64,000 nt of DNA, taken from IMG/VR virus record IMGVR_UViG_3300044638_004427, positions 5,417 through 69,416 of that record; one strand, 5' to 3'. A program made the translations under genes and the position numbers. The notes under the pieces were generated by a model. That model searched no databases, was not told the DNA's origin, and worked only from the letters and a program-made list of their open reading frames with translations. This document shows positions 59,449 through 62,128 of this stretch, one piece after another; position 1 is the first letter of the stretch, and each line of letters begins with the position of its first letter. This DNA comes from a virus.

Positions 59449-62128
59449 TTATGAATTAACAATACCAGTAATGATTGTATTGCGACCGGGAGCTTGGCAG
59501 AACAAAGCTTGGTCGGTATAGAGGCGGAGCTCGTAAGCTGCGCTGTTTTCGAGATCGCGGAAGAACTCTTCACCTTGACCAGGGCGTTTGAAGGTGATGT
59601 CGGTAGAACCAACACGCATCCAGTCTTCTACGTTAAGGAGATAAGCATATCCCTGTTTAACATAGAGTGAAGGCTCAATTTCAATTTCGCCGTTCTGTGA
59701 ATGGAACTTGAGAGACTTAGCTCCGTTTTCCATTTTAGCAGGACTGTAGCTCTGATCATACTTGCGTAGAGCAGCTTGATCGGTGAGCATGTTCTGCCAG
59801 CTACGGACGTTAACTAGAGCAAGAAGTGTACCTTCCTGACCTTTTTCAACAGCACGGGTTGCAGCCTGTCCGAGTTTGGTGAAAGATAGAGCAGCTGAAG
59901 CTGCGCTATAACTGTTACCACGGAATAGGTTGTAGGTTCCAACGTCGATGTTGAAAAGTGTACCCGAAGAAACGGTTAGAATCTTGTGGATTCCAGCGAA
60001 TTCGTTTCCATAAGCACCTTTGTGCCAAATAACATCGCCAGAAGCGATGAGAGCAGCAACAGAAGAGTCACAGGTGACAGTTTGAGCAGACATGTCTACT
60101 GAAAGAACCTTAACAGATGCTTTTAAAGCACCTGATGAAGGATCACGAATTTCAATAGGCATTCCTTCTGCCCCTGCCCAGATACCGGGTGCCCATTCAG
60201 CGGTTTCAATGGTGATGACTGCGCCAAGTGCGGAGTCAACAACAGCATAACCAACTTGACCATAGAGCATTTCGATTTCAAGCTTCTTAGCCATAGAGCG
60301 AAGCATGTTTGCCACTAGGAATTTAGTAGCATCCATGAAAGCTTTTTGACCACCGAGAGCAGCACGAGAAGCAGCGACATAGCCAAGGAGTGAACGGAGA
60401 ACGGCTGGAGAGCCTTTCACCTGAGCATCTTTGACTTGTCCTGCGACTGGAGCTTGAAGATTGAAAGCATCTTCATCTGAACCAGCGAAAGTAACCTTGT
60501 GTTATCGTAAGGGCTCTTTATCCCCTACTTCTTATAGTTTCCTATAAGGTCAGACTATCTTTTCAACCTCTGTAATTGAGGTTGTTGGTGACTCGTGGGA
60601 TTATTTTATTCCGCTAAAGCGGGTTCAAATCCTAGTCGTTGCGCGTGTTCAGAGGTATTACCCTTAGAACTTCCGCTCTGATTAGCATGGAGAATTAATT
60701 CTCTGTAGCTTTCCAAGTTTTTTCACCAATTTATACACGGCATTACTGTTTACCGTGTTCTAATCCGAGGATAATCATTTTGTTACTCTTGTATTTTTAC
60801 AAGGGAAGAACCTCTTCGGATTCTTCTCTGCAACTTTATGTATACTTGCAGTTCAGACTATTGCATCTGTTTTTAAAAACAGCCAAATCGCTTAGTCGTT
60901 CACGGTCCAAAAAAAAATTTTAAGGTTCCGCCTCGTTGCCCTAAAATTGGATTATTTTTTTAGGGTTTCCGAGTCAATCAGATTCGGTTTAGACAGCCCC
61001 ATTATATTAAGGCTGGTGATATAAATTTCCAGGTTGTTTCAAATATGTTATCGTTGAGCTTTTTATCTCAACTTCTAGCGGTTCTATTCCTCGCTAGTTC
61101 GGCGTACATTTTCAACCACTTGGGTTGTCGGGCTCTCTTGGGAATATTTTATTCTGTAGAATTCTTGTCTAAATTCAGATTCAACTACTCTAAATTTATG
61201 TTTCATTGAAGGAATATGAATAATCTTATGTCTAACCTTCATCCAAATTCTATAACTATCACCAACTGTAAATTTTAAAAGAAGCCATTCTTTATTTCTT
61301 TTATTATTACGTTGTTTAGTTATATATGGCGTGACATTAAAATTAATTTTAAACCATTCAATAACCATGTTTAAAGTTTCTTCTGTTTCAGAACAAGTTG
61401 CAATTAGGACTCTAGGACTCAAATATCCGTTGTTTTTTGTTGAATAATGAATACAACCATCATCCATTAACCAATAAGCTAATGCTGTTGTTGCATCTGT
61501 AACATCTTCAAGTATTTTCACTATAGATTTTTTTCCGTTTGGATAATATCTATTTCTCCATTCAGAAAATAATTTTTCATGCAAATACAAACAATGAATA
61601 TTTCGCTTACTTCTATAATAAACGCTTACATGTTTATTATATTCTTTTCTAAGAATATCAGCAATATGATCTAAATAATCTAATTGCTCTGGGCAGTGAT
61701 CAACCCTAAATGAAGGTTTATTTTCTGCTCCAAGATAAGCATCGCCTAATAAAGTACCTAATAGCACATTTTTTGACATATAACTCCATGTCTTATTTTA
61801 TTTTTTTAGTCACCAATCTTACTACATTGGTGTAACTTCTACAGGGTCAATTCCTACGCTCTACGGTGGCAAAACTTTTTTAATTTTTTTGCTTACCTCG
61901 GAATAGTCATTTCAGACGTCTTCCGATATAGCCCAATGTTTATCTATACGTTACCGTATAGAGGGACAAACGGTCAAGTTAATCCTTGCTCATGAACTTA
62001 ATTTTATTTAGCAATTTAACCCCATCTGGGATTAGCTCTGCTAAACGATCTGCATATGTTTCTTTGAAAAACCCGTTTAGGGTTCCAACGGTATTGTTTG
62101 GAGTACCGTAAGTATTTGCACTTGCCAT
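59449..62128 (-). CDS. Major capsid protein, spliced from four exons: 62128-61982, 61039-61010, 60775-60752, 60495-59449 (415 aa)
   Basis: Joined frame is open: MASANT...KFMSKD|KQPGNLYHQP|IILGLEHG|VTFAGSDEDAF...; lies downstream of the scaffold gene and before a strong terminator; highly expressed-type codon use. Confidence 0.85.
60496..60751 (-). ncRNA. Group I intron 3 of the capsid gene (256 nt, no ORF)
   Basis: P1 CACGGU/GCCGUG with U.G pair; P10 AGUAAU/GUUACU; P3 UUGGUGA/UCACCAA; P7 GACUA/UAGUC; terminal G. Confidence 0.9.
60776..61009 (-). ncRNA. Group I intron 2 of the capsid gene (234 nt, no ORF)
   Basis: P1 CAGCCU/GGGCUG; P10 AUAAU/AUUAU; P3 CCGAAUC/GAUUUGG; P7 GACUA/UAGUC; terminal G. 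Confidence 0.9.
61040..61981 (-). mobile_element. Group I intron 1 of the capsid gene (942 nt) carrying a LAGLIDADG homing endonuclease
   Basis: P1 GGAU/GUCC; P10 GUUU/AAAC; P3 UUGGGCU/AGCCCGA; P7 GCGUA/UACGC; terminal G. Confidence 0.88.
61084..61779 (-). CDS. Intron-encoded LAGLIDADG homing endonuclease (two motifs)
   Basis: LLGTLLGDAYL and LAYWLMDDG motifs; GGAG RBS. Confidence 0.9.
   Translation of the reverse strand: MSKNVLLGTLLGDAYLGAENKPSFRVDHCPEQLDYLDHIADILRKEYNKHVSVYYRSKRNIHCLYLHEKLFSEWRNRYYPNGKKSIVKILEDVTDATTALAYWLMDDGCIHYSTKNNGYLSPRVLIATCSETEETLNMVIEWFKINFNVTPYITKQRNNKRNKEWLLLKFTVGDSYRIWMKVRHKIIHIPSMKHKFRVVESEFRQEFYRIKYSQESPTTQVVENVRRTSEE

Follow-up and report, generated by a model that had tools for sequence, protein, structure and literature searches.

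Evidence for three group I introns with intervening micro-exons in the major capsid gene of an uncultured phage

In Staphylococcus phage Twort, a single gene is said to contain three group I introns and to undergo exon skipping, as reportedly described by Landthaler and Shub in 1999. Introns have also been described in capsid genes, those of mycobacteriophage LittleE and lactococcal phage Tuc2009 (Pope et al. 2013, PMC3706429), where the main text gives splicing in LittleE as proven by reverse transcription PCR and N-terminal sequencing across the junction, and those of the crAss-like Delta and Zeta phages, for which the main text reports group I introns in the capsid gene and, in the Zeta group, one such gene broken into five parts (Yutin et al. 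2021, PMC7886860). Multi-intron genes are reported, again in the main texts, for the DNA polymerase and terminase of Bastillevirinae (PMC11878797) and for the Jug jumbo phages (PMC12880540). Here we describe a capsid gene in a 64,000-nucleotide stretch, hereafter the window, which covers bases 5417-69416 of a 69,416-base contig from an uncultured virus (IMG/VR record IMGVR_UViG_3300044638_004427, a metagenomic record estimated to be 81% complete). With a probability of about 90%, we read it as a single major capsid gene of the HK97 fold that contains three group I introns, each separate and complete, between codons 49 and 50, 59 and 60, and 67 and 68.

In the Twort gene, as in that of the window, short exons are said to separate three group I introns, but the Twort introns are reportedly similar to one another and associated with skipping, whereas those of the window appear to belong to two lineages with unrelated guides and nothing suggests skipping. 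As in the window, the major capsid genes of LittleE and Tuc2009 hold a self-splicing-type intron that encodes a homing endonuclease, with a U at the exon end and a G at the intron end, but they have one intron per gene as described in the main text (PMC3706429), compared to three within 54 coding nucleotides (nt) in the window, which are known from sequence alone. The crAss-like phages resemble the window in their metagenomic origin, many introns, split capsid gene and inserts with intron-type endonuclease domains; they differ in that the capsid is of an unrelated family, from the human gut, and the introns were recognised by protein domains, with no folds, micro-exons or site maps in the text (PMC7886860). 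As far as the main texts go, the Bastillevirinae and Jug genes match the window in that an essential gene can hold as many as three group I introns, introns with an endonuclease gene occur next to forms lacking an open reading frame (ORF), and Rfam matches are broken by ORF-containing loops, but the targets are polymerase, terminase and nucleotide-metabolism genes rather than a capsid gene. The initial annotation of the window, which considered three ribozymes in the gene for the most abundant virion protein unusual, thus overstated the rarity of the case, since capsid-gene group I introns are published (PMC3706429, PMC7886860). In the main texts that our literature search covered, neither this capsid family nor a map of its intron sites was described. 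The window gene is a real, well-supported case of a published arrangement with a textbook mechanism; it leaves the knowledge of how group I introns work unchanged and adds a family-level picture of intron turnover.

Gene layout and the capsid protein

The split gene is encoded on the minus strand, in a block of structural genes close to the end of the contig, and its four exons join to a 1,248-nt reading frame for a protein of 415 amino acids (aa):

61982..62128, minus strand: capsid exon 1, codons 1-49, ends in GAU; 100% match to residues 1-49 of homologue P0003; in the ORF list
61040..61981, minus strand: intron 1, 942 nt, group I, subgroup-IA-like (P7.1/P7.2), opens with an in-frame UAA, ends in G
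61010..61039, minus strand: micro-exon 2, 30 nt, KQPGNLYHQP; from intron-less homologues and tblastn
60776..61009, minus strand: intron 2, 234 nt, no ORF, group I, P1-P9.2 without P7.1/P7.2, opens with an in-frame UAA
60752..60775, minus strand: micro-exon 3, 24 nt, IILGLEHG; same peptide in relatives, junctions from tblastn
60496..60751, minus strand: intron 3, 256 nt, no ORF, group I, IA-like
59449..60495, minus strand: capsid exon 4, codons 68-415 and stop (348 codons plus stop)

The upstream exons all end in U (GAU, CCU and GGU), and the three introns all end in G and are in phase 0. In the intron-less homologue P0003 (415 aa), the same region reads ...KIKFMSKD/KQPGNLYHQP/IILGLEHG/VTFAGSDEDAF... 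(slashes at the junctions), which equals the window pieces joined exactly. When P0003 was searched against the window by tblastn, query residues 1-49, 50-59 and 66-415 aligned at the proposed exon positions, with residues 1-59 identical and residues 66-415 96% identical (likewise 96% over exon 4). All three junctions are contiguous in P0003 and in the intron-less P0004, P0006, P0012 and P0027. The coordinates, phase, U and G ends and 415-aa frame given by the initial annotation were borne out by the sequence, the ORF list and tblastn, and the check it had proposed, alignment of the spliced protein with intron-less capsid homologues, gave five homologues that read through the junctions with KQPGNLYHQP-IILGLEHG present.

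With exon 4 as query against 5.8 billion proteins, 8,000 candidates were scored, of which 2,377 are relatives at E ≤ 0.001; lengths of 408-424 aa predominate in the top 120. A profile search of 1.84 billion cluster representatives gave 1,503 clusters (50% identity) at E ≤ 0.001. The protein matches the PHROGs major head protein family phrog_14242 (E 1.6e-12, residues 12-403), with no match for the 415-aa protein in Pfam and nothing relevant in a profile search of PDB sequences. An AlphaFold model based on a 138-sequence alignment, used in place of 15 close homologues that gave a predicted local distance difference test score (pLDDT) of 41, reached a pLDDT of 92.2. Foldseek comparison of the model with the PDB gave 273 matches at E ≤ 0.001, led by the capsids of phages SPO1 (9vel), SU10 (7z48), A-1(L) (7f38) and HK97 (2ft1), with a VP1 capsid and encapsulin shells also among the best matches. 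No second capsid locus was found in the 69-kb record, the split gene being the only copy. On the strength of phrog_14242, the modelled fold and this single copy, the 415-aa protein is identified as the HK97-fold major capsid protein of the phage, in agreement with the identity first assigned to it. In the model, short helices at residues 14-42 and a long hairpin formed by residues 55-63 and 87-105 precede a helix at residues 116-145; from the order of these elements, they would correspond to the N-arm, the E-loop region and the spine helix, respectively. Residues 50-67, encoded by the micro-exons, are almost invariant in 15 homologues (74-93% identity).

The upstream exons also bear marks of selection. 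Residues 1-110 are identical in the window and three related loci (L003, L007 and L012, with one change in L012) despite 24-47 nt differences in 330 and different intron sets; over the first 201 nt, L003 departs from the window at 36 positions, all of them synonymous. From this pattern of selection, exons 1-3 appear to be translated in frame with exon 4, in which case the introns must be removed. Synonymous differences are approximately three times denser around the insertion sites, as would be expected from co-converted flanks or from guide/target co-adaptation. The existence of database gene calls of 323 and 336 aa (P0020-P0023, and P0002 with 22 member sequences) could be taken to mean that exon 4 by itself encodes the capsid protein and that the upstream pieces are remnants. 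We find this hardly credible given the strong protein-level selection on exons 1-3 (36 synonymous and 0 amino-acid changes), the predicted loss of the N-arm helices and the first E-loop strand from such a protein, and the predominance of full-length intron-less homologues (65 of 80 loci, see below).

Splice-site helices and ribozyme cores

We ran a scripted search for P1 helices that place a U.G pair at the splice site and are flanked by a P10, using 500 trials of shuffled exon flanks as control. It recovered both helices at each junction, as initially proposed, with the pairing of intron 1 weak by the shuffle (bp, base pairs):

Intron 1: P1 GGAU/GUCC (4 bp), P10 AAAC/GUUU (4 bp); shuffled flanks as good in 35/500
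Intron 2: P1 CAGCCU/GGGCUG (6 bp), P10 AUUAU/AUAAU (5 bp); shuffled flanks as good in 2/500
Intron 3: P1 ACACGGU/GCCGUGU (7 bp), P10 GUUACU/AGUAAU (6 bp); shuffled flanks as good in 2/500

In all three introns, P10 is directly 5´ of the P1 strand. Taken alone, the guide pairing of intron 1 is weak evidence because of the number of shuffled flanks that pair as well. The two roles of each micro-exon, as P10 partner of the preceding intron and P1 strand of the following one, are at opposite ends (nt 1-4 and 25-30 of exon 2; nt 1-6 and 18-24 of exon 3).

Intron 1 carries a protein-coding gene, and its core is found in two parts:

61836..61981, minus strand: 5´ ribozyme half of intron 1, with guide GUUU-GUCC (P10/P1), P2, P3 5´ strand UUGGGC, P4-P6, P7 5´ strand GCGUA, P7.1 5´ strand GGAAU and P7.2 5´ strand CUGUAG; aligned with ORF-less relatives
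61040..61161, minus strand: 3´ ribozyme half of intron 1, with P7.2´ CUACAG, P7.1´ AUUCC, P3´ GCCCGA, P8 CAACC/GGUUG, P7´ UACGC, P9 UAGCG/CGCUA, P9.1 and terminal G
61084..61779, minus strand: LAGLIDADG homing endonuclease gene, 231 aa, two LAGLIDADG-type motifs, within the P7.2 loop of intron 1

The relatives were found through nt 72-141 of intron 1, which are 78-81% identical to inserts in the tape-measure gene of Streptococcus phages Javan355, MissB1 and phiJH1301-1 and to an insert of Clostridium phage CB452P1; the phiJH1301-1 insert has no ORF and holds the entire core in one piece. With the ORF cut out and the two halves aligned with the Streptococcus and Clostridium phage relatives, the metagenome contig L083 and intron 3, P2, P3, P6, P7, P7.1, P7.2, P8, P9 and P9.1 of intron 1 were located by homology, P3´ GCCCGA pairing with UUGGGC. 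In this ORF-less alignment, 213 of 220 cells are paired and 21 of 37 pairs are compensatory, compared to 31-42% pairing in slid controls. P7 is GCGUA/UACGC in intron 1, GCAUA/UAUGC in L083 and the Streptococcus phages, and GACUA/UAGUC in intron 3. A covariance model built without intron 1 (R2) matches both halves, at 61041-61245 (67.6 bits, E 1.7e-14) and 61714-61901 (34.6 bits, E 1.7e-6), and it is these two separate matches, with the helix alignment, that place the endonuclease gene in the P7.2 loop. We thus assign intron 1 to group I as a sister ribozyme of intron 3 with a core split by the LAGLIDADG gene. A weaker R2 match at 36636-36797 (E 0.1), inside an intact 564-aa ORF, was treated as chance, and an early core for intron 1 drawn by eye (P3 ACAUUGG/CCAAUGU, P7 UUGAC/GUCAA) was dropped, the Streptococcus phage homologues having given another core.

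The 231-aa ORF is intact, matches PF03161 (LAGLIDADG_2; 75.2 bits, cut-off 25) and phrog_11023, and has the motifs LLGTLLGDAYL and LAYWLMDDGC. L083, a metagenome contig, has intron 1 at the same site, with 85% identity in the 5´ part, 83% in the ORF and 97% at the 3´ end, and with compensatory changes in P2, P6 and P7. The last ~35 endonuclease codons run through P7.2´, P7.1´, P3´, P8 and P7´ into the P9 loop, which contains the stop codon. Between the window and L083 endonucleases (82% identity), the nonsynonymous and synonymous substitution rates (dN/dS) are 0.13/0.90 in codons 1-195, and dS is 0.05 in the last 35 codons. Because dS falls from 0.90 to 0.05 within the core overlap, a dual constraint on the 3´ end of the gene, by the protein and by the ribozyme core, is visible in the comparison. 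The endonuclease is apparently functional, and since intron 1 carries it, this intron probably is the only self-mobile one of the three. No relatives of the LAGLIDADG gene were found in viral contigs, one locus (L083) was found in metagenome contigs, and GenBank phages gave only weak matches in crAss-like phages. The stretch that separates the endonuclease start from the P7.2 5´ strand (61780-61835, minus strand) also contains a hairpin, CACCAAU/AUUGGUG, with a compensatory U-A to C-G change in L083 (by eye), and a second possible hairpin, GACAU/AUGUC, which would bury the endonuclease AUG; these hairpins may control translation of the enzyme.

Intron 3 gave an end-to-end match to the Rfam group I model RF00028 (60786-60531, 52.8 bits, cut-off 50) in a 3-kb search. 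The same intron is present at the same site in L012, whose capsid is 90% identical over exon 4; the flanks of the L012 copy are 100% and 99.5% identical to intron 3, with ~610 nt, holding a gene for a 221-aa GIY-YIG endonuclease, in place of 17 nt. Because the two copies are near-identical apart from this insert, intron 3 is read as an ORF-less derivative of a GIY-YIG-bearing intron. An alignment of contiguous members of the intron 1/3 lineage, without intron 1 (A4), is 95.9% paired with 25 of 37 pairs compensatory. Subgroup IA introns have extra P7.1 and P7.2 helices between P7 and P3´, a definition that reportedly goes back to Michel and Westhof in 1990. Both helices are found in introns 1 and 3, with 5/5 pairs of P7.1 and 4/4 pairs of P7.2 kept and compensatory changes present. 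From these comparisons, introns 1 and 3 belong to one IA-like lineage, common to genes of Streptococcus and Clostridium phages. Javan355, phiJH1301-1 and CB452P1 share with this lineage 78-81% identity in a core stretch, P6-P9.1 with compensatory changes and a ...GAUAACA...G 3´ end, but differ in the host gene (tape measure) and phage group, and the Javan355 endonuclease lies upstream of the core rather than in the P7.2 loop. The inserts span approximately 677-1740 in Javan355 (L084), 1453-1717 in phiJH1301-1 (L085) and 1513-1703 in CB452P1 (L086); GenBank shows two 'tail length tape-measure protein' coding sequences in these records, with or without a homing endonuclease between them, and the introns are unannotated. 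In 17 Bacillus thuringiensis phage records (Eyuki, Megatron, Belinda and others), an unannotated sequence at about 105 kb matches the 3´ part of intron 3 (60500-60566, minus strand) with 92.5% identity over 65-67 nt; these are presumably related introns.

Intron 2 was read by eye from P1 through P9.2, with P7 followed directly by P3´. Lacking P7.1 and P7.2, it was assigned to no subgroup. Eight small introns, from the window and seven relatives at sites 57/58, 59/60 and 63/64, were aligned (A3), and RNAalifold recovered P3, P4, P5, P6, P8, P9 and P9.1 in the family, with 24 of 39 pairs compensatory. With P7 included as a pseudoknot, A3 has 44 pairs, 99.4% of cells paired and 25/44 pairs compensatory, a value reached by 0/500 shuffles, and sliding the partners by 1-3 columns lowers the pairing to 24-42%. 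The model derived from A3 (R1) scores 132.8 bits on intron 2, though intron 2 is in the seed, and has intron 2 as its sole match in the window. R1 also finds further members with endonuclease genes, in L047, L053, L054, L070, L058, L055, L074 and L083. Over 15 members fitted to the model, 97.3% of cells are paired and 28 of 39 pairs are compensatory, in an alignment that leans towards the model. These pairings identify intron 2 as a group I intron of a lineage separate from that of introns 1 and 3. A blastn search of intron 2 against 50,697 phage records gave no match.

Introns across the capsid family

Relatives of the window gene were collected by a profile scan of viral contigs, which gave 80 loci; the patterns used (KQPGNLY and EHGVTFA) lie inside the intron zone, so that interrupted genes are under-sampled. 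The gene is uninterrupted in 65 of the 80 loci and interrupted in 15, a proportion to be read as a lower bound. In the 17 interrupted genes (these 15, the window and L083), boundaries read from the sequence placed introns at 11 sites in codons 21-78:

21/22, phase 0: L003, L083; L076 from the intron 3´ end only
49/50, phase 0: window, L083
53/54, phase 0: L059, L062, L064
inside codon 55, phase 2: L073
57/58, phase 0: L003, L047, L053, L054, L058, L070, L074, L076
59/60, phase 0: window
inside codon 60, phase 2: L083
63/64, phase 0: L007, L055, L058, L059, L062, L064, L074
67/68, phase 0: window, L012
inside codon 68, phase 2: L058
inside codon 78, phase 1: L007, L059, L062, L064, L076, L083

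L083, a more distant relative (gene at 958-2857), has four introns in the first 80 capsid codons, two between codons (21/22, and 49/50 with the LAGLIDADG gene) and two that interrupt codons 60 and 78. L058 (2059-4008) has three introns, separated by micro-exons of 18 and 14 nt, and the third is a sister of window intron 3 (81% identity) inserted 2 nt downstream with its guide re-fitted and a P10 of only 1 bp. An endonuclease domain was found in 10/10 intron ORFs tested (LAGLIDADG in 2, GIY-YIG in 6, HNH in 2), and Rfam recognises the introns of L073 (77.6 bits), L012 (34.2 bits) and the L003 intron at 21/22 (37.3 bits) as well. P1 is at least 4 bp in 25/27 introns across the loci, and the U.G pair is always kept while P1 varies with the site; the two misses are L073, in which an ORF precedes the core, and the 21/22 intron of L083, for which P1 is GAUGUUU/GAACAUC once the boundary is moved 3 nt (by eye).

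The 11 sites are occupied by at least two, and probably more, ribozyme lineages together with three endonuclease families. One ribozyme lineage is found at 57/58, at 59/60, inside codon 60 and at 63/64, with the guide re-fitted to each exon, and we take a guide that changes with the site inside one ribozyme family to be the strongest sign of working introns rather than debris. In a tree of 15 intron-2-family cores, 9/12 inner branches were open and the window was on a long branch, such that the number and direction of site switches could not be derived. Among 15 close homologues, codons 49-78 are 95% identical, compared to 78% outside codons 21-80. Conservation alone does not explain the clustering of introns, because equally conserved capsid blocks elsewhere hold none in these loci. 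A tentative reading, and one on which we would not insist, is that the first ~80 codons of the family, encoding the N-arm and E-loop, are a landing zone for introns with frequent ectopic re-targeting rather than simple homing. If true, re-targeting would proceed by reverse splicing or by illegitimate endonuclease-driven insertion, and the genes would provide a natural series for the minimum exon length between two ribozymes. The family is also a compact comparative set for intron mobility, with 11 sites, three endonuclease families, ORF-bearing and ORF-less sisters and an endonuclease gene whose 3´ end doubles as a ribozyme core.

Many database proteins of the family are shortened gene calls (P0002, P0005, P0017, P0020-P0023, P0034, P0036, P0062, P0068, P0075, P0089, P0091, P0099, P0121, P0124, P0161, P0206, P0209 and P0216) that start at or just after mapped intron sites, at residues 58, 60, 64, 69, 80 and 93 (MKGSPAV...); the 336-aa P0002 and 323-aa P0020 are exon-4 fragments. 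Since so many entries start at mapped sites, the intron zone appears widespread and routinely mis-annotated. Gene callers split or shorten the capsid gene, and a family of 1,503 clusters is easily mis-annotated because a standard Rfam search of the whole window finds none of the three introns.

Splicing, mobility and alternative readings

Nine metatranscriptome runs contained 5-7% of the sampled words, and we examined the contigs of four, river metatranscriptomes with relatives at 92-96% identity; most of intron 1 and the middles of introns 2 and 3 were uncovered. In X1, an 884-nt contig has exons 1-2-3-4 joined with no intron and synonymous differences in exons 2 and 3, and a second contig spans the intron 3/exon 4 border. 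In X2 and X3, contigs with exons 1 and 2 fused extend a further 52-69 nt into intron 2, and a contig from X4 has the same exon 1/exon 2 haplotype as X2 and X3 and continues into exon 3.

Several observations weigh against an intact, spliced gene. The RNA contigs fit a mixture of spliced and unspliced RNA, but equally intron-plus and intron-minus strains or library DNA, and this evidence comes from relatives in different samples without a DNA control. The genome itself is a metagenomic contig, 81% complete, from which viability of the exact genome does not follow. P1 of intron 1 is only 4 bp, with P1 and P10 together equalled by 35/500 shuffled flanks, and the P4-P5 pairing of this intron was not resolved. 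The search with the group I model of Rfam, suggested in the initial annotation, recovered intron 3 and neither of the others: RF00028 never matched intron 1 (3-kb search; 5´ part alone) or intron 2, even when intron 2 was searched alone, and a search of the whole window, with gathering and E-value thresholds, found none of the three, intron 3 included. We take these misses to reflect limits of sensitivity and filtering rather than to be evidence against the introns; filters matter, because the 52.8-bit match of intron 3 vanishes in the whole-window searches.

The ambiguity of the RNA contigs, the short P1 of intron 1, the low or absent Rfam scores and the reliance on a single metagenomic contig could also indicate that at least one intron no longer splices, so that the capsid gene on this contig would be dead, the phage being defective or the insertion too recent to have been purged. 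This seems highly improbable, since the core helices are intact in each intron and are kept in relatives by compensatory changes, the exons are undamaged and match an intron-less homologue (residues 1-59 identical, 66-415 96%), and the record has no second capsid gene. The same introns, moreover, are found at the same sites in diverged genomes and independent assemblies (intron 1 in L083, 85% identical in the 5´ part, and intron 3 in L012), and parts of introns 2 and 3 are in the RNA-library contigs. The core of the initial proposal, three group I introns that leave micro-exons of 30 and 24 nt in a capsid gene and have P1 and P10 helices at all junctions, is supported.

Nothing found here supports a further suggestion of the initial annotation, that splicing gates capsid production or yields exon-skipped variants. 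By analogy with Twort, splicing might serve regulation or generate in-frame exon-skipped capsid proteins: all three introns are in phase 0, such that skipping exon 2, exon 3 or both keeps the frame, and exon skipping for the tandem Twort introns and alternative spliced variants for Bastillevirinae introns are reported in the main texts of a review (PMC3073962) and of PMC11878797, respectively. However, the guides differ (GUCC, GGGCUG and GCCGUGU) and, by eye, each pairs solely with its own 5´ exon end; residues 50-67, near-invariant in the 15 homologues and part of the predicted N-arm/E-loop region, are such that deletion forms probably could not assemble; and no skipped form was seen among the RNA contigs of relatives, though contigs drop rare variants. 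We therefore regard a regulatory or variant-generating role as very unlikely.

For an intact gene with three working introns, and with group I biology as the model (work on T4 td, nrdB and sunY; co-conversion of flanking exons), we infer the following course in vivo. The late transcript would lose all three introns to give the 1,248-nt frame for the 415-aa protein, the three ribozymes folding independently and each reacting by two transesterifications, in which guanosine attacks the P1 U.G pair and the exons are then joined past the terminal G, with P10 as the guide. Ribosomes entering an intron would be halted before the ribozyme by an in-frame stop, the opening UAA in introns 1 and 2 and the third codon in intron 3, and the LAGLIDADG enzyme would be translated from its own GGAG-N6-AUG start. 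The enzyme would cut intron-less alleles of co-infecting relatives near 49/50, and repair would copy intron 1, with introns 2 and 3, at 30 and 54 coding nt from intron 1, hitch-hiking by co-conversion as intron 1 homes; these two introns would have lost, or never had, an endonuclease gene. The virion protein needed most abundantly would then depend on three ribozymes in series. A free-standing endonuclease gene directly downstream may add to the intron traffic.

This gene, of 479 aa, is at 57921-59360 on the minus strand and matches phrog_3339 (E 2.3e-97), Pfam DUF7487 and, weakly, Mom. The capsid stop codon is directly followed by a G+C-rich hairpin with a U run behind it (59395-59440, minus strand), which resembles an intrinsic terminator and is the source of a weak, false L20-leader match in Rfam. 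Further downstream of the capsid gene are a tail fibre/collar gene (55385-55978) and, within the structural block, two more free-standing endonuclease genes, of the GIY-YIG type (51597-52394) and the HNH type (50446-51168).

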